Shown here one piece after another: positions 4,005 through 39,181 of a stretch of DNA of 45,256 nucleotides (position 1 is its first letter; each line of letters starts with the position of its first letter). This stretch comes from Escherichia phage bob. Below the pieces are notes generated by a model that saw only the letters and a list, made by a program, of their open reading frames with translations, was not told the origin of the DNA and ran no database searches. Position numbers and translations under genes: made by a program. The stretch lies in the sequence record NC_073072.1; one strand, given 5' to 3'.

Positions 4005-4031
4005 ATTGGTTGCATAATCATATTGGTTGCA
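4005..4031. promoter_or_regulatory. tandem pair of ATTGGTTGCA motifs
   Basis: ATTGGTTGCA at 4005-4014 and 4022-4031, intergenic; one of about 18 genome-wide copies of this 8-9-mer. Confidence 0.5.
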
Positions 4032-4782: not shown

Positions 4783-5268
4783 ATGCAGAAGAGTGAGCAA
4801 AAAGATAGCTGGCGCACGCCGCCAGCTTTATTCAAACCGCTGCGCCGTAAGTTCCGATTCCGTTACGATATGGCGGCAAGCGACGCCAACCATCTGCTAC
4901 CGCGTTACTTCACGGCAGAGCACAGCGCGCTTGATGTGGACTGGTCAGAGTTGAAAGGGTGGAAGTGGTGCAATCCGCCGTATTCCGATCCGCTGCCGTG
5001 GGTCGAGTGTGCAGCGCACGGACGCCGGACTGTCATGCTACTGAATCAGGACACGTCGACGAAGTGGGCGAAGCTGGCCCGGAAGACTGCAAACCTGATA
5101 ATTCTTCTGGACTGGCGGATTAGATTTATACACGCCGTCACCGGCGAAGTCGGGCCTAGCAATAACAAGTGCCAGCAATTGATAATCTTTGACGAAGCGC
5201 CACCCATCGGCAGCGCACAAATTGAAATAATGAGCGAAGGAGAACTCCTTGAATATCTTAATCGTTGA
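4783..5268 (+). CDS. phage-type DNA N6-adenine methyltransferase (Dam family)
   Basis: SWRTPPALF...RYDMAASDANHLLPRYFT...WKWCNPPYSDPLPWV: NPPY catalytic motif and the conserved WxTP N-terminus of the phage Dam family. Confidence 0.85.
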   Translation: MQKSEQKDSWRTPPALFKPLRRKFRFRYDMAASDANHLLPRYFTAEHSALDVDWSELKGWKWCNPPYSDPLPWVECAAHGRRTVMLLNQDTSTKWAKLARKTANLIILLDWRIRFIHAVTGEVGPSNNKCQQLIIFDEAPPIGSAQIEIMSEGELLEYLNR

Positions 5269-5473
5269 CCGCGACCCTGCGGTAGTAGACCGAATGCAAA
5301 GAGACTATAACATCGACCCACGCCGCGATCGTGTGAAGCGAGTGTCACGTCCGGAATATATCCTGGGTCTGGACCTTACCGGCTGGCTTGTCATAACCGC
5401 AAATTGGCATCTTGTGTGTAACAAGTTTTCCGCCAGAGTTGTTCGTTCGGATTTGGTTGAGGAATTAAAATGA
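5249..5473 (+). CDS. hypothetical protein (TTG start), translationally coupled between Dam and HAD genes
   Basis: AAGGAG RBS 7 nt upstream of TTG 5249; stop overlaps ATG of next gene; overlaps Dam 3' end by 20 nt. Confidence 0.35.
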   Translation: MNILIVDRDPAVVDRMQRDYNIDPRRDRVKRVSRPEYILGLDLTGWLVITANWHLVCNKFSARVVRSDLVEELK

Positions 5474-5940
5474 AACTACTGATTTGTGATTTGGATGGCG
5501 TCATTAACGGTTCAAGCGATGCGCGTGCCGACCTGGTGCCAGGTATAAAAACCAAATCAACATTTTGGGCGAAGTGGCACAAAGCGCATGTACGCGAAGA
5601 CCTTAACATGGATATGCTGCCGCTGTTGAGCATGTATAAAGAGCAAGGCTTCGAGATCGCGTATCTGACAAACCGGCAGCGAGAATGCTGGGAGACTACC
5701 GTCGAGCAATTGGAAGTATTCCCCGTAGGCCGGTTGTTTATGCGCCACATGCTGGACGATACCCCGCCGCCAGTGTTTAAAGCGTGCGCCGTGTTCAAAA
5801 TGGTCTGCTATGCGGACGTATCGGAACTGGTCATCATTGAAGACTGTCCGAAGAACATCGCGGCCATTCGACGGGCGTGCAGCGATCTGGTCCCGAAAAT
5901 TTATGCGATAAACGTTGCAAAATTTACTTGCAACCAATAG
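5470..5940 (+). CDS. HAD-superfamily hydrolase (putative nucleotidase/phosphatase)
   Basis: N-terminal HAD motif I LICDLDGVI; 156 aa. Confidence 0.6.
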   Translation: MKLLICDLDGVINGSSDARADLVPGIKTKSTFWAKWHKAHVREDLNMDMLPLLSMYKEQGFEIAYLTNRQRECWETTVEQLEVFPVGRLFMRHMLDDTPPPVFKACAVFKMVCYADVSELVIIEDCPKNIAAIRRACSDLVPKIYAINVAKFTCNQ

Positions 5941-5950
5941 GTTGGTTGCA
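5929..5950. promoter_or_regulatory. perfect palindrome TGCAACCAA-tagg-TTGGTTGCA
   Basis: 9 bp inverted repeat with 4 bp spacer, overlapping stop codon of 5470..5940 and upstream of gene at 6000. Confidence 0.55.
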
Positions 5951-9332: not shown

Positions 9333-9411
9333 AGCTAAATCCTCGTAATTGGTTGCAATCCTGGCTGAGCGGTGTAATACTAAAACTCAACCAAATATAG
9401 GGGATGATACC

Positions 9412-9630
9412 ATGAAAACTTTAATTATGATTTGTGCGGTTCTTTTGTCCGGTTGTGCCGACATGCCGTCTAAAATCTGCGACGCAACATACATGAATAG
9501 TGGTATGGAGTATTCCGTCCAGGTGTTTGGGGTCGCCGACTTTAGCGGGCATAAAATGCTAAGGGCGGGTTATCCGTTCAACTTCCAGTATGTGTCGGTC
9601 GACCACTTCAAAAGCACCACCTGCGAATAA
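9412..9630 (+). CDS. small outer-membrane-type lipoprotein, candidate receptor-blocking superinfection-exclusion protein (Cor/Llp-like by context)
   Basis: MKTLIMICAVLLSGC: signal peptide with lipobox LSG|C; 72 aa; divergent from tail fibre gene; GGGGA RBS. Confidence 0.65.
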   Translation: MKTLIMICAVLLSGCADMPSKICDATYMNSGMEYSVQVFGVADFSGHKMLRAGYPFNFQYVSVDHFKSTTCE

Positions 9631-19555: not shown

Positions 19556-19745
19556 TTATTCAGTCTCAGACGAGGGGGGCCATTGACCCCCGTCTAGTCT
19601 GAAAGACTGGGGTGCTGTCCCGCTGTCCCGATCGGCTGAAAACCGCGGCAGCACTGGCGGGGACGGGGTGCTGTCCCGTTTTGTCCCGCCCCTTGTTTGT
19701 CCCGCTTTCTGTCCCGCTTACTTTATGCAATAAAACTGCATAGGT
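19556..19745. repeat. copy A of a ~180-190 bp dispersed element (G-rich hairpin plus GTCCCG iterons)
   Basis: First ~75 bp TTATTCAGTCTCAGACGAGGGGGGCCAtTGACCCCCGTCTAGTCTGAAAGACTGGGGTGCTGTCCCGCTGTCCCG near-identical to 35971-36045; both copies end TTTATGCA..TTGCATA. Confidence 0.8.
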
Positions 19746-23464: not shown

Positions 23465-24565
23465 TTAAGACGCGGTAGTCGCAGTCAGCGTAACCAGTAC
23501 GCCAGCGGTTTCCTTGATGTGACGGGTAGGCACTGCCTGTGCGGCCTGGGTCTTACGACGACCTTTAGTATCGCCATCACCCACAGCGCCAACGTCCTGC
23601 ACGGTTGCCGGTGCGTTGTCTACCTGGCCCTGGTCCAGTTCCCAGTTAGCGGAAGTGGTAATATCGTCCAGTTTGAACGAGCGCACACCTTCGATCGGGG
23701 TACGAGCGGACGCCTTCAGACGGTAGCCTTTAACGGCCACGTTGAAGTCGAACTCGCCCTGCCACCAGCGTTCGATGTTCTCGTTACCGCCTTTCTCCTG
23801 CGCCAGCATATCGAGGCCGTTGGTGGTAACTGCAACCGCGCCAGGGACCAGACCCAGCATGTTACCAGCGCCCATAGCATCGGCAGCGGCATCGGAGATA
23901 ATGAAGCGACGGCCCAGGCCATCGCCCATTACCTGGAGATCGCCAATTGCGAATACCTGTTCAGCGGAAGGGAGCGCCTGGTACGCAATGAAGTTTGCCC
24001 AGGTAACGCCGTCCATAAACCAGGACTTAATCAAAGACGCCTGATCGCCGAACTTAGAAGCCGCCAGCGGGAAGTCTGCCAGGGTCGGGAAGGTACGACC
24101 GCCAACGCCGTCAACGCGCGCCGGTTGGGTGTATTTTGCCGCTGCGTTGCTTTCGATCGCCGCTTTACTTGCGCCGATACCAGCTTTCAGGTAGTGCAGC
24201 ATAATCGCTTGAGTAGCCTGTGCCGCAATCTCAGCCGCAACGCTGTTAACGTTGGTTTCGATCTTAGCCATCATAGCCTTAGTGATTGCTACCGGACCCA
24301 CTTTTGCGGAAAGGTTAACCGAGTTGGTCAGCATACGCGCCAGCACTTTAGCGGTTGCCGGAGTGCCGACAGGGGCGTAGGCGTTACGGTCGGTAACGAG
24401 GTTGGCGATCAAGCCTACGGACATTTTCTCAATAACATCCTTCAGCACTTCACCAGTACCGAGAACAACAGCGCCATTGGCGGCAGCGTTGAATACGTTC
24501 AGGTTGTCGGGGATCATTTGCGTAACCGCGGTAACGAGTTTACGCTGGAACACTGTTAAAGACAT
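23465..24565 (-). CDS. major capsid protein
   Basis: 366 aa; follows scaffold-like gene and precedes a strong terminator; Ala/Gly/Val-rich composition. Confidence 0.75.
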   Translation of the reverse strand: MSLTVFQRKLVTAVTQMIPDNLNVFNAAANGAVVLGTGEVLKDVIEKMSVGLIANLVTDRNAYAPVGTPATAKVLARMLTNSVNLSAKVGPVAITKAMMAKIETNVNSVAAEIAAQATQAIMLHYLKAGIGASKAAIESNAAAKYTQPARVDGVGGRTFPTLADFPLAASKFGDQASLIKSWFMDGVTWANFIAYQALPSAEQVFAIGDLQVMGDGLGRRFIISDAAADAMGAGNMLGLVPGAVAVTTNGLDMLAQEKGGNENIERWWQGEFDFNVAVKGYRLKASARTPIEGVRSFKLDDITTSANWELDQGQVDNAPATVQDVGAVGDGDTKGRRKTQAAQAVPTRHIKETAGVLVTLTATTAS

Positions 24566-24662: not shown

Positions 24663-25364
24663 CTACTCGTCGCCCATCTTAGCGATGATTTCACCAGCCT
24701 GTTTCGTAAGGTCAGTGATACCGAAGCTGTGGCCCATCGTGATTTTCGACTTCACATCTTCGACAACCTGCGTCGGTTTGCTAGGCGCGCCGCCTGCTGG
24801 CGTGCCAGCCAGGACGGACGCAAAATCGGCGTTATTACGGAACTCTTTTTCAAGTTCTTCCATAGTCAGCGCGGACGGTTTGCCATCCTGCAAGACACGC
24901 ACTTTCAAGCTGCCGTCTTCGCCGTCTTCCAGCGTCAGGCGGTCCATTACGTGGCGTTGCATGATGCCCGCATTCTTACCGAACAGCTTCGACGCCAGGT
25001 CTTTGGCAGCGCTGCCGATGGTTAGATCGTGGATCTGCTTGCGGTAGGCTTCGATTTTTCCCGATGTGTCTGCTTCGTGTTTCGCAAACTTATCTTTCCA
25101 GGACTTGTCGATCGCTTCGAGGTCGCCATTTTTGCGCGCGGCGGCTTCCTCTTTCTCTTTCGCAAGGCGCTCAGCTTCGGCGCGGCGTTCAGCTTCTGCT
25201 TTCTTCTCGCTCACCAGCTTCGCGTTGTTGTCTTTCAGACCCTTGATTTCCGCCTGTACTTCTTCTGCGGTCATGAACGTTGATTTATACCCGTCGCCAT
25301 CGGCAACAAAAAGCGCCTTCATACCTTCCGGCAACGCGTCATATTCTGCTTTAGTAAGTTTCAT
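24663..25364 (-). CDS. putative scaffolding protein
   Basis: ATG 25364 with GGGGGA RBS; Lys/Glu/Ala-rich coiled-coil-like centre (KKAEAERRAEAERLAKEKEEAAARK); immediately upstream of capsid gene. Confidence 0.55.
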   Translation of the reverse strand: MKLTKAEYDALPEGMKALFVADGDGYKSTFMTAEEVQAEIKGLKDNNAKLVSEKKAEAERRAEAERLAKEKEEAAARKNGDLEAIDKSWKDKFAKHEADTSGKIEAYRKQIHDLTIGSAAKDLASKLFGKNAGIMQRHVMDRLTLEDGEDGSLKVRVLQDGKPSALTMEELEKEFRNNADFASVLAGTPAGGAPSKPTQVVEDVKSKITMGHSFGITDLTKQAGEIIAKMGDE

Positions 25365-25467
25365 GCTATCCCCCTGGGATTGTGGCAGAGCAGGCCACCC
25401 GCTCGACTTCACGCTTCTAATATTATCAGCGATAAAAATAATCGCAAAATTCGCTTGCAATCCGCGT

Positions 25468-25492
25468 ATTGGTTGCACTATATTGGTTGCAC
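25468..25492. promoter_or_regulatory. tandem pair of TATTGGTTGCA motifs in a divergent intergenic region
   Basis: Copies at 25468-25478 and 25482-25492, between scaffold gene start (25364) and plus-strand gene at 25514. Confidence 0.5.
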
Positions 25493-25513
25493 ACCAACAA
25501 CGAGGACACAAAA

Positions 25514-26278
25514 ATGAGACTGACAAAAGACATTAAAAACCAGATTCTGGCTAACATCCTGCGCGACCACGAAATCGCGACCGAAGCCAAATCAATCATG
25601 ATGGACTCTCGAAATCTGGCGTACGCCATTACGATGGACTGTATGCCGGAAGGCATTCATTCGTTCGCCGAGCTACGTGAGCGCATTGCAGCAATCGGCG
25701 GTGACCCGTCGCAGATGTACGGCGTCTGTGTGTACACCAACAAGGCGACGTATAGACATGACGCCGACAGCCCATATGGTGTAGGCAGCGTTTACGAAGC
25801 CACTTTCGAAATCAACGCAGGCGGAAACGTCCGTACCGTGTCATTGAGCGGAGACGGACACCGAGTCCGAGTATATCGCGGATACGGGGAGTATAAATAC
25901 ATGAATAAACTGTCTCCCGATCTCGGCGATATTGTGCCTGGGTATGAGGAAATTTTGTTAGCGTCAGTGTGCGAAGTCGATGACGACGGGAAAGCGCTGC
26001 CGATATATATGCCACGCGGTCGTATAGACTACCCGGCGGACCATGATTTCTGTAAGCGCCTGGACCGTAACGACAAGGCCCGCCGTGAGTTGCGTGCTAA
26101 GTATGACGCGTTCAAACTAACTGTTACCGGCGTGCTGGATATGCACAATACCGATAAGAAGCTGATCAAGGCGTGGCCTGAAGTGGAACAGTTCATTCCT
26201 TACCCGGGCAAGCCGAAGTCCACGGCGGTGGCGCTGGACGTGAAGACGTTAAACGAGATTTGCGGTATTCCGCGCTAA
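25514..26278 (+). CDS. hypothetical protein (254 aa) on the opposite strand within the late operon (moron-like)
   Basis: ATG 25514; own upstream motif pair and downstream bidirectional terminator; no recognisable domain. Confidence 0.6.
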   Translation: MRLTKDIKNQILANILRDHEIATEAKSIMMDSRNLAYAITMDCMPEGIHSFAELRERIAAIGGDPSQMYGVCVYTNKATYRHDADSPYGVGSVYEATFEINAGGNVRTVSLSGDGHRVRVYRGYGEYKYMNKLSPDLGDIVPGYEEILLASVCEVDDDGKALPIYMPRGRIDYPADHDFCKRLDRNDKARRELRAKYDAFKLTVTGVLDMHNTDKKLIKAWPEVEQFIPYPGKPKSTAVALDVKTLNEICGIPR

Positions 26279-26283
26279 TAAAA

Positions 26284-26300
26284 GGGGCCATTACGGCCCC
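26284..26300. terminator. bidirectional terminator hairpin
   Basis: GGGGCC-attac-GGCCCC flanked by A/T runs; overlaps 3' end of o-spanin ORF. Confidence 0.5.
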
Positions 26301-26521
26301 CGAATTATTTGCTGCAACTCCAGGACCTGCGCCCTCAGCTTCGCCCCGCATTCCATATTTTTCACGTCAATCATCAAATCTTCGTCGGGGTCCGCGGACG
26401 GGTTATCGAACTTGCACGGCGGTCGCAGTGCCGACTCCGTTAGCGGCATCAACGGCGCTTTGCTTGATCCGCACGCGCTCAGCATCAAAACTGCAATCAG
26501 GACGGTTAGGACGCGTAACAT
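26291..26521 (-). CDS. o-spanin (Rz1-like outer-membrane lipoprotein)
   Basis: MLRVLTVLIAVLMLSAC: lipobox LSA|C; Pro-rich mature part; start embedded out of frame in the i-spanin gene. Confidence 0.6.
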   Translation of the reverse strand: MLRVLTVLIAVLMLSACGSSKAPLMPLTESALRPPCKFDNPSADPDEDLMIDVKNMECGAKLRAQVLELQQIIRGP

Positions 26522-26732
26522 ATTTCACAACCTCTTTCGTGATAGTCCGGTATTCCACATCGCGGGCCTGTTCTGCCTGCACAGCCCCCTCGACAACCTT
26601 AGTTTGCTGCCGTTGGGCTTTCGCTTGCGCTTCTTGCGATGCTCTCGCCACAACGGCAGCGCGGTAGGAATCACCCTGCCAGAATCCTACCACCAGACCG
26701 ATAACCAGTCCGATCGCTGCATATTTAATCAC
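26403..26732 (-). CDS. i-spanin (Rz-like)
   Basis: GTG 26732 with GGGGG RBS; N-terminal TMD IKYAAIGLVIGLVVGFW then Gln/Ala-rich helical region. Confidence 0.55.
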   Translation of the reverse strand: MIKYAAIGLVIGLVVGFWQGDSYRAAVVARASQEAQAKAQRQQTKVVEGAVQAEQARDVEYRTITKEVVKYVTRPNRPDCSFDAERVRIKQSAVDAANGVGTATAVQVR

Positions 26733-27828
26733 GCCATAACCCCCGGTTTTTAAGCTGTGCAATAGTCATCAGTTCGCCAGAATCGGTAAACATCTTCGGC
26801 ACTTTCACGCCGCGCATAATCTGGTCGGCGCGTTGCACTCCATATAACTCCTCCAGGATGTGGCGCGGCTGGCGCTGCACCCAGGAGAAGAAATCAGTCT
26901 GCGCGTCGACCTGCTCACTCAGCAACCGGCCCGCGTCAGCCTTCAATGCCGGACGCTTACCACTGGGCCAATCTTCCATGCCCTTAACTTTCCACGTCTC
27001 CGTAGACCGGCAACAATAATGCAACTTGCCCGGACCAGCGCCATATTGTGACCCAGCCACCACTTTCCCGCCGCGCTTTCCTTTGGTGTTGGGAGTGACG
27101 TCAACAGGATAAAACAGGCGATCGCGTAGCTGGCACATTGGGGAAGTATGAGTGTCCAATGTAGCCAACCATTGGCGACCTTCGAGAATATCGTCATTAG
27201 CTTTCACCATTAATTCGCGGGCAGTCGCCGCATAGTGGTTAACTGCGGACTTAACAACGCTTGAGATTGCCTGCGCACTACGACCGCCGAGAGCGCGCCT
27301 CACGTCCGCGATAATTTCCATAGTCGGCTTGCCCTGGATGAAGCCAGCGCGCACCTGATTACCGATCTGCGTCCTGGTCCACTCAGAGAGTGAGTCAGGC
27401 CATTGCATCATCGTATTACCCTGGAACGGGTTTTTCATAGCCGTCGCTGCGATCTGTGCACCGGTAACAACGCCAACTACTTCAACAGCGGGTACGGCGA
27501 CAGCGGGCTGGATCGCTGCCGTTAGTGTGTCAGCGAGATAATCAGCCTCGGTGTCGGCGAACTCCTGAAGGCTTTCAGCCAGCGCCTTAAACTCGGTGCG
27601 CAGTTCTGTTTTAACGGTCTTGTCGAGTTGCGTTAACAGAGTGGTAAGTGCCTTGTTGTTCATGGACTTTTTGCCATCAAGTAACTCGGTCAGCTTACCC
27701 AGTAACGTGGGCCGGAACTTCTCCCACATAGCCAGCACCCGCCGCGCCTGGTCATTGCTCAGGCGCTGGGTGAAGATGTGACGACGGATCATGCGATCCG
27801 CCATATGTTGATTAATCGTTCTCGCCAT
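26725..27828 (-). CDS. head morphogenesis protein (Mu F / SPP1 gp7-like)
   Basis: 367 aa; ...WLATLDTHTSPMCQ... motif typical of the family; immediately downstream of portal. Confidence 0.75.
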   Translation of the reverse strand: MARTINQHMADRMIRRHIFTQRLSNDQARRVLAMWEKFRPTLLGKLTELLDGKKSMNNKALTTLLTQLDKTVKTELRTEFKALAESLQEFADTEADYLADTLTAAIQPAVAVPAVEVVGVVTGAQIAATAMKNPFQGNTMMQWPDSLSEWTRTQIGNQVRAGFIQGKPTMEIIADVRRALGGRSAQAISSVVKSAVNHYAATARELMVKANDDILEGRQWLATLDTHTSPMCQLRDRLFYPVDVTPNTKGKRGGKVVAGSQYGAGPGKLHYCCRSTETWKVKGMEDWPSGKRPALKADAGRLLSEQVDAQTDFFSWVQRQPRHILEELYGVQRADQIMRGVKVPKMFTDSGELMTIAQLKNRGLWRD

Positions 27829-35779: not shown

Positions 35780-35821
35780 TGCAACCAATATAGCAAGGTG
35801 CCAGGGCGAATGCAACCAATA
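35780..35821. promoter_or_regulatory. pair of TGCAACCAAT motifs upstream of minus-strand gene 35758
   Basis: Copies at 35780-35790 and 35811-35821; a further TATTGGTTGCC at 35901-35911. Confidence 0.5.
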
Positions 35822-35970: not shown

Positions 35971-36158
35971 TTATTCAGTCTCAGACGAGGGGGGCCACTG
36001 ACCCCCGTCTAGTCTGAAAGACTGGGGTGCTGTCCCGCTGTCCCGCTCCTCTGGAAGCCGCGCCATCCGGGGCGGGACGGGGGTGCTGTCCCGCTTTGTC
36101 CCGCCCCTAGTCTGTCCCGCTTTTTGTCCCGTTTGGTTTATGCAGTTTTATTGCATAA
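35971..36158. repeat. copy B of the ~180-190 bp dispersed element
   Basis: Same hairpin GACGAGGGGGGCCAcTGACCCCCGTC and six GTCCCG iterons; aligns with 19556-19745. Confidence 0.8.
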
Positions 36159-39151: not shown

Positions 39152-39181
39152 TTGACACCCATCCTGCAACCAATCTATTAT
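39152..39181 (+). promoter_or_regulatory. sigma70-type early promoter (TTGACA-18-TATTAT)
   Basis: Consensus -35 TTGACA at 39152-39157, -10 TATTAT at 39176-39181; a GCAACCAAT motif lies in the spacer. Confidence 0.6.

Follow-up and report, generated by a model that had tools for sequence, protein, structure and literature searches.

The nmad5 locus of Escherichia phage bob: a conserved accessory gene of Dhillonvirus phages and its possible link to phage DNA metabolism

The genome of Escherichia phage bob (sequence record NC_073072.1; the whole 45,256 bp were analysed and are called the window below) carries a single plus-strand open reading frame (ORF) of 254 amino acids within a block of minus-strand head genes. 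By sequence comparison this ORF is nmad5, an orthologue of the gene studied in the Dhillonvirus phages PhiSMS22 and PhiSMA8. A preliminary description of this DNA had placed it, correctly, between the scaffold and spanin genes, and had reported no recognisable domain in its product. The latter does not hold, as the protein matches the Pfam family Nmad5 (PF18757) over its full length (residues 1-253 against model positions 1-206 of 206, E-value 4.5e-53, 180.8 bits with a cut-off of 27) as well as PHROG 1965 (E-value 2e-58). All PF18757 signature residues are present, namely R2, L3, G104, G113, T213, L217, W221, P222, E223, L246, N247, G251 and P253.

A megablast search with the nmad5 region matched 153 phage records, nearly all of them Escherichia Dhillonvirus, and the top match was vB_EcoD_Opt212 with 99.7% DNA identity over the region. 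Since the window aligns whole to the 44.5-kb Opt212 genome as a circular permutation, with ~90-96% identity per block, we take it from this alignment to be one complete Dhillonvirus genome; its gene map was taken from the Opt212 annotation. Rightward of the spanins follow a MuF-like head protein, the portal and the terminase. The features of the locus are collected in Table 1. A longer ORF beginning at TTG 25469 was rejected as the promoter region read in frame.

Table 1. Features of the nmad5 locus and positions of the recurrent motif in the window
Feature	Position	Strand	Evidence or remark
nmad5 coding sequence, 254 amino acids plus stop	25514-26278 (ATG 25514, TAA 26276-26278)	+	PF18757, phrog_1965, orthologues, AlphaFold2 model
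Ribosome-binding site GAGGA, 7 nt 5' of ATG	25502-25506	+	block GAGGACAC..AAATGAGACTGAC invariant in 11 aligned genomes
Divergent intergenic region, scaffold gene to nmad5, 149 bp	25365-25513	.	
Predicted sigma-70 promoter, TTGCAA - 18 nt - TATATT	25455-25484	+	consensus scan, 9 of 12 matches; weak evidence by itself
TTGGTTGCA copy 1, in promoter spacer	25469-25477	+	exact match
TTGGTTGCA copy 2, over -10 hexamer and likely transcription start	25483-25491	+	exact match
(AT)4 tract within nmad5; (AT)5 in Opt212	26003-26010	+	
Codons 213-223 (TDKKLIKAWPE), best-conserved surface in the family (T213, L217, W221, P222, E223); includes K216 (26159-26161)	26150-26182	+	alignments
Codons 246-253 (LNEICGIP), family-wide C-terminal LNxxxG[LI]P motif	26249-26272	+	alignment
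GC-rich hairpin, predicted bidirectional terminator	26283-26301	.	terminator score on both strands
Major capsid gene, left side	23465-24565	-	
Scaffold gene, left neighbour	24663-25364 (start codon 25362-25364)	-	
o-spanin, nested in i-spanin	26291-26521	-	lipobox LSAC
i-spanin	26403-26762	-	
TTGGTTGCA copies, whole window	4006, 4023, 5929(-), 5942, 9349, 25469, 25483, 32717, 32740, 35248, 35780(-), 35811(-), 39165(-)		

The divergent region upstream of nmad5 has a GC content of 47% against 54.5% for the genome. The tandem motif pair that the preliminary description had noted in a divergent region of ~150 bp was recovered as two exact copies of TTGGTTGCA in a gap of 149 bp, the second of which, read with the next bases, forms the 5-bp inverted repeat TTGGT-TGCAC-ACCAA. 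The window contains 13 exact copies of TTGGTTGCA, compared with 0.28 expected and a maximum of 2 in third-order Markov simulations. Nearly all of them are intergenic according to coordinates transferred from Opt212, pairs are often 14-31 bp apart, and the pair at 5929-5950 is a perfect 22-bp palindrome. Several copies contribute the TTGCA(A/T) -35 hexamer or overlap the TATATT -10 hexamer. A minus-strand gene at 35780-35819 has a layout similar to that of nmad5 (TTGCAT - 17 nt - TATATT, then TTGGTTGCACACCAACA..GAGGA), and the architecture common to both consists of a -35 TTGCA(A/T) in or beside one motif copy, a spacer of 17-18 nt, TATATT running into the second copy, and CACCAACA..GAGGA. Elsewhere, the copies at 4006 and 4023 lie between plus-strand non-structural genes, the copy at 39165 lies where the primase-helicase and replication blocks diverge, and the copy at 9349 precedes a lone plus-strand gene inside the minus-strand tail block. 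TTGGTTGCA probably marks a single class of phage promoters/operators that serves non-structural units. Sigma-54 and known host-regulator sites were considered as explanations of the motif and dropped by eye, the spacing being unsuitable. A consensus scan of the divergent region gave no clear minus-strand promoter for the scaffold(-capsid) unit.

The hairpin downstream of nmad5 folds with -17.2 kcal/mol on the plus strand (z -2.3) and -20.9 kcal/mol on the minus strand (z -3.3), and is kept in 11 of 11 aligned relatives. Its U-tract is better on the minus strand (UUUUAUU) than on the plus strand (CGAAUUAUUU). The hairpin is predicted to close both nmad5 on the plus strand and the portal-MuF-spanin block on the minus strand; the GC-rich bidirectional terminator of the preliminary description is thus supported by prediction, by the score on both strands and by conservation. 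As a minus-strand terminator it would also split the "head operon" in two, with terminase, portal, MuF and spanin genes in one unit and scaffold and capsid genes in the other. The spanin pair itself resides within the head block, ~6.5-8 kb away from the holin and endolysin genes as placed by coordinate transfer from Opt212.

Morons of lambdoid phages, as reportedly described by Juhala et al. in 2000 and by Hendrix et al., are promoter-gene-terminator insertions between otherwise adjacent genes, and the preliminary description had assigned nmad5 to this class. The layout fits that assignment. Like classical lambdoid morons, nmad5 is a compact and non-essential unit that is probably transcribed independently of the late genes around it. 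It lies on the strand opposite to its neighbours and has an AT-richer divergent upstream region, a predicted promoter of its own (a conserved sigma-70-like site combined with the recurrent motif) and a predicted terminator of its own (the conserved GC hairpin of -17 to -21 kcal/mol). In other respects it is unlike them, being neither polymorphic among relatives, nor foreign in composition, nor lineage-specific. The flanking capsid/scaffold DNA was found in 157 records and Nmad5, at a protein identity of at least 60%, in ~145 of these (~92%), where the orthologues are 80-99% identical; some of the remainder are incomplete records or have the gene cut by a record end. Presence and absence at the locus, which had been put forward as a check, therefore does not follow the polymorphism expected of a moron, and the near-universal orthologues that were to speak against one do exist, although with no structural role.

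The single clear absence, in Teewinot (L015, 2501-2640), results from a clean deletion within the gene, by which codon ~37 is fused to the final six codons while promoter and terminator are both retained; the deletion leaves remnants rather than the directly adjacent flanking genes expected in close relatives that lack a moron. In Opt212 (L001, 40641-41434) nmad5 differs from the window copy by one substitution and an (AT)4-to-(AT)5 slip, which shifts the frame and splits the gene into two coding sequences; this frameshift could be real or a sequencing error. The base composition is native, with a GC content of 52.7% against 54.5 +/- 2.6% for the genome and a GC content at third codon positions of 62.4% against 61.7%-65.7% for the neighbours. 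The ratio of nonsynonymous to synonymous substitution rates (omega) is 0.125, indicative of purifying selection and two to four times the values for the capsid, MuF and scaffold genes (0.03-0.06). Mean protein identity is 89.5% for Nmad5 versus 97-99% for the same three proteins. The amino-acid change in Nmad5 is 4-9 times that in the neighbouring genes and is concentrated in residues 46-135, whereas the last 44 residues are almost invariant. We conclude that nmad5 is a near-universal, vertically inherited and dispensable gene of Dhillonvirus.

The moron-like polymorphism of the locus resides one gene to the left, in a variable cargo slot between the promoter and nmad5. Among 11 genomes (the window and 10 IMG/VR loci), seven have one extra plus-strand gene between the same TTGGTTGCA-pair promoter and nmad5. 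These genes are of four unrelated kinds, encode 54-172 amino acids, and are followed by a small GGGGCGAAAGCCCC hairpin and then by nmad5. The slot is located at ~2550-2990 in the relatives L003-L008 and L010, where the extra gene parts the divergent region from nmad5; it is empty in the window and in three of the 10 IMG/VR loci, and the divergent region is kept in L002, L009 and L011. The EP23-like cargo gene (L006), predicted to be co-transcribed just 5' of nmad5, matches a DNA-polymerase processivity-factor PHROG (E-value 8e-9) and, weakly, a beta-clamp central domain; the other three kinds were assigned no function by match. In its behaviour the slot resembles a classical moron site more than nmad5 does. 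It is a place to seek new host-interaction genes in Dhillonvirus and a site for payload insertion when these therapy-relevant phages are engineered.

The window protein shares with other members of the Pfam Nmad5 family the N-terminal MRLTK/N..I..N, GG turn, TxxKLxxAWPE and LNxxxGLP motifs, and differs from them in its middle insert (residues ~46-135), which is longest and most variable in the Dhillonvirus branch. Over 48 diverse members L217, W221, P222, L246 and N247 are invariant, and G104, P229, G251 and P253 are nearly so (G251 and P253 in at least 90%). The only semi-conserved polar motif, A175-D176-H177, is retained in 27-29 of the 48. All 38 Dhillonvirus-type sequences have K216, and among the 48 diverse members the position is occupied by K, Q, A, R or N, never by an acidic residue. 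An AlphaFold2 model built from a 37-sequence alignment (predicted local distance difference test, pLDDT, 75.6; predicted template modelling score 0.74) has N-terminal helices 5-42 that form a hairpin-like core with the long helix 178-209, short C-terminal helices, and a small beta insert of four strands (71-110), modelled with lower confidence. The model of a homologue with ~26% identity has the same architecture (pLDDT 80).

No catalytic fold or solved homologue was recognised for Nmad5 in these comparisons: a PDB sequence search gave no match, the best Foldseek hit of the model against PDB had an E-value of 0.69, and a BFVD structure search returned only Nmad5 relatives. The invariant columns of the 48-member alignment consist of L, W, P, N and G, with none of catalytic type. 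By every test applied, Nmad5 thus appears to be without detectable enzyme features. The family name "nucleotide modification" reflects one genomic context, that of Yuavirus, and not a shown activity; the Dhillonvirus copy adjoins no nucleotide-modification gene, and it is such an association on which the name, although not the profile hidden Markov model, is based. Its neighbours are scaffold, capsid, spanin and MuF genes, and the sole modification-type gene annotated in the near-identical Opt212 genome is a Dam-like methylase ~20 kb away.

An exhaustive HMMER search yielded 97 cluster representatives of the Nmad5 family, and tblastn located it in Yuavirus, Stx and other lambdoid phages, N4-like and ep3-like phages, Eiauvirus, Hungariovirus, vibriophages and one cyanophage. 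A related-locus search with a narrower alignment gave six viral loci and none in bacterial genomes, while a lambdoid-type query gave four loci in bacterial genome records of Shimwellia, Photorhabdus and Izhakiella. In ~14 of 18 non-Dhillonvirus loci a gene for PolA, SSB, a helicase, a primase, an exonuclease or a recombinase lies within 7 kb, and five loci have the order SSB - Nmad5 - PolA. Acinetobacter phage Scuro and four metagenomic contigs show DUF2800 nuclease - Enc34-type SSB - Nmad5 - PolA with a divergent SF2 helicase; in loci L031 and L032 nmad5 comes directly after or before an SF2 helicase gene, and in eiAU-183 it follows a primase-helicase gene. The N4-like phage Pollock has the order ThyA - Nmad5 - exonuclease - primase - Sak4 - SSB, Bas97 has helicase - x - Nmad5 - x - Holliday-junction resolvase, and in the lambdoid mEp235 the gene is part of the pL operon, between N/Nun and cIII-kil-Erf-SSB-Exo.

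In YuA nmad5 lies in a thymidine-hypermodification cluster, upstream of PolA, a family A DNA polymerase. The YuA gp15/M6-type protein belongs to the same family (its C-terminal 80 residues are ~40% identical); it differs from the Dhillonvirus protein in being shorter (186 amino acids) and in its place among genuine modification enzymes, which were neither annotated nor detected near Dhillonvirus nmad5. The window encodes DUF2800 (E-value 4e-66) and an Enc34-type SSB (E-value 2e-31) beside PolA, in addition to an SF2 helicase in the Opt212 annotation, so the Dhillonvirus genome, judged by these matches, holds the same replication module with nmad5 alone displaced from it. The genes that accompany Nmad5 across lineages are those of replication/recombination, not those of modification.

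The published work on this gene in a heavily sampled genus concerns defence. Yamashita et al. (2025, Commun Biol; PMC11846954) studied nmad5 in the Dhillonvirus phages SM_S22 (PhiSMS22) and SM_A8 (PhiSMA8). Phages that escaped Tmn carried nmad5 K216E (SM_A8 numbering), and reversion restored sensitivity; deletion of nmad5 in PhiSMS22 gave viable phage that was still Tmn-sensitive; cloning of nmad5 was impossible, with apparent toxicity; and the product was termed a DNA-modification enzyme on the Pfam name alone. The same study shows that PhiSMA8 and PhiSMS22 lacking anti-Tmn, both with wild-type nmad5, are Tmn-sensitive, that the anti-Tmn of the genus is ORF35, and that Tmn blocks T1. The defence-related cargo that the preliminary description associated with such units is borne out in part by the K216E escape. 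The published gene occupies the same locus, the window protein being 94.5% identical to that of SM_A8 and 99.2% to that of SM_W22 and possessing K216, and the reported properties (deletable, toxic to clone, escape by K216E) should transfer to the window copy. SM_A8 and SM_W22 differ from the window by an extra gene between scaffold and nmad5, visible as two-piece matches. The annotated coding sequence of SM_S22 (L016, PP627283.1, 1474-2478, 335 codons) starts 80 codons 5' of the conserved ribosome-binding site and ATG. Since this start call is too far upstream and overlaps the scaffold gene, the "longer" SM_S22 protein, and with it the distinction between K296E and K216E with a "truncated N-terminus" (PMC11846954), is on this comparison an annotation artefact.

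A profile search of T1 in all six frames detected no Nmad5; T1 is nevertheless blocked by Tmn, and therefore Nmad5 is not the universal Tmn trigger. In T2 the trigger is RIIB, described as a replisome component (bioRxiv 2026, PMC13001434), an association that parallels the genomic context of Nmad5. Both proteins are regarded here as early, both are non-essential, and both are tied to Tmn by escape mutations. They differ in that loss-of-function mutants of RIIB escape Tmn and the nmad5 deletion does not, and in that Nmad5, by inspection, has no predicted membrane segment. Homology of Nmad5 to T4 RIIB was rejected (hhalign probability 0.25%). K216E gives the family's best-conserved surface a charge not found there in nature. 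The position of the escape residue on this surface, where nature never has an acidic residue, fits an interaction that is changed and not lost.

Taken together, we tentatively propose, at somewhat less than an even chance, that Nmad5 has no catalytic role and serves the early DNA-metabolism programme as an adaptor, with its invariant C-terminal face as the site of partner binding. The nmad5 unit would be transcribed with the non-structural (early/middle) programme, apart from the head genes, an arrangement supported by the occurrence of the same TTGGTTGCA promoter element ahead of non-structural gene blocks and of the gene for a Cor-like lipoprotein. The protein may work with the phage replication/recombination machinery, that is, with the set of DUF2800 nuclease, Enc34-type SSB, PolA and SF2 helicase. 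In the model it combines a long hairpin of helices with a small, variable beta insert and ends in a short, strongly conserved helical region on which T213, K216, L217, W221-P222-E223 ... L246-N247 ... G251-P253 may form the partner-binding surface. In Dhillonvirus the gene would have moved out of the replication module into the head block and been kept as a separate transcription unit. K216E would then alter an interaction on that face and remove no trigger, which would explain why a point mutant escapes Tmn and a deletion does not.

Several points weigh against this proposal. The neighbourhood support for a replication role is circumstantial, and four carriers (C130_2, L018, L024 and L025) have no recognisable replication neighbour. 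Lambdoid carriers are without PolA, DUF2800 and SF2 helicase, and therefore none of these is the partner in every lineage. Because the deletion mutant forms plaques, any replication role of Nmad5 is auxiliary. The timing of nmad5 expression is inferred from promoter similarity only; a literature search on Dhillonvirus transcription timing found nothing usable. The confidence of the AlphaFold2 model is only moderate at residues 60-135, and the protein is near-neutral (pI 6.3) and no obvious DNA binder.

The best surviving alternative, which we consider possible but rather unlikely, is that Nmad5 is a host-takeover or anti-defence factor, an early accessory protein that binds and inhibits a host DNA-metabolism or immunity protein through its C-terminal motif, so that the position near replication genes merely reflects shared early timing. 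Toxicity of the cloned gene in E. coli, its dispensability and the escape from Tmn by one substitution on the conserved face (PMC11846954) agree with this, as do the location of lambdoid Nmad5 in the N-cIII accessory region of the pL operon, the excess of amino-acid change over the neighbouring genes in residues 46-135, and the occasional natural loss or disruption of the gene. However, wild-type Nmad5 gives no protection against Tmn, a role that belongs to ORF35, and searches of PADLOC and NCBIfam gave no match. The omega value and the almost invariant C-terminus argue for a conserved partner over an arms race, and shared timing alone hardly accounts for the repeated placement of the gene directly between SSB and PolA, or adjacent to a helicase, in lineages with no more than 30% identity.

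The adaptor proposal also has a bolder form, in which Nmad5 would be a widespread non-enzymatic accessory subunit of the replisome, and Tmn-type transmembrane NTPases would survey its C-terminal face directly or via a partner. We regard this extension as improbable on present evidence. If true, Tmn would be a general monitor of phage replisome-associated proteins, in parallel to RIIB, and the "nucleotide modification" label would be a misnomer.

Very unlikely is a third possibility, that Nmad5 modifies DNA bases, either as an enzyme or as an indispensable subunit of one, and that Tmn senses the modified base. It draws on the gene of the Yuavirus phages YuA, M6 and SN1, which sits inside a thymidine-hypermodification cluster and adjoins a kinase, an aGPT-Pplase, a radical-SAM enzyme and a dUMP hydroxymethylase, and on the N4-like Pollock, where nmad5 follows thymidylate synthase. 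Against it stand the failure of the fold and alignment searches to reveal an enzyme fold or invariant catalytic residues, and the lack of modification genes near nmad5 in the window. DNA hypermodification is not known from the lambdoid, N4-like, ep3-like or Dhillonvirus carriers. As indirect evidence, the BASEL preprint describes Dhillonviruses as relatively susceptible to type I/II restriction, in contrast to the 7-deazaguanine phages. Moreover, the nmad5 deletion leaves Tmn sensitivity unchanged, and T1, in which the profile search detected no Nmad5, is Tmn-blocked. Because the family has no signs of an enzyme and travels with replication/recombination genes, the Tmn paper's assumption of a DNA modification that is made by Nmad5 and sensed by Tmn has a weak foundation.

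Equally unlikely is a true moron, a recently acquired and self-contained cassette of optional cargo inserted in the head operon: its promoter-gene-terminator layout, opposite strand and dispensability for plaque formation are outweighed by the ~92% occurrence with one secondary deletion, the native composition, the purifying selection, the wide presence of the family in phage replication modules and the location of the variable element upstream of nmad5, and this reading is already largely refuted. The gene is already known and directly studied, so that the "orphan moron" is reclassified as the known conserved accessory gene nmad5, for which the association with replication modules and the non-enzymatic architecture provide a testable direction.

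Further features of the genome were recorded in the course of this analysis. A non-coding element of ~175 bp occurs twice, at 19556-19729 and 35971-36144, with 90% identity, a GC hairpin at its start and at least seven repeats of the unit TGTCCCG; it resembles an iteron array, and may serve as a replication origin or bind a regulator. A second lone plus-strand gene in the minus-strand tail block (9412-9630), downstream of the TTGGTTGCA copy at 9349, encodes a predicted lipoprotein of 72 amino acids (signal LLSGC) that is similar to Cor-type superinfection-exclusion proteins by size, position and lipobox. Ksap1 is the Dhillonvirus protein sensed by Klebsiella Avs2 (PMC11564622). Identity of nmad5 with this KpAvs2 trigger was rejected, as Ksap1 is a separate 74-amino-acid gene between methylase and phosphatase; in the window the candidate for it, matched by size and position alone, is a plus-strand ORF of 74 amino acids at 5249-5473, between the Dam-like methylase (4783-5268) and a phosphatase (5470-5940).

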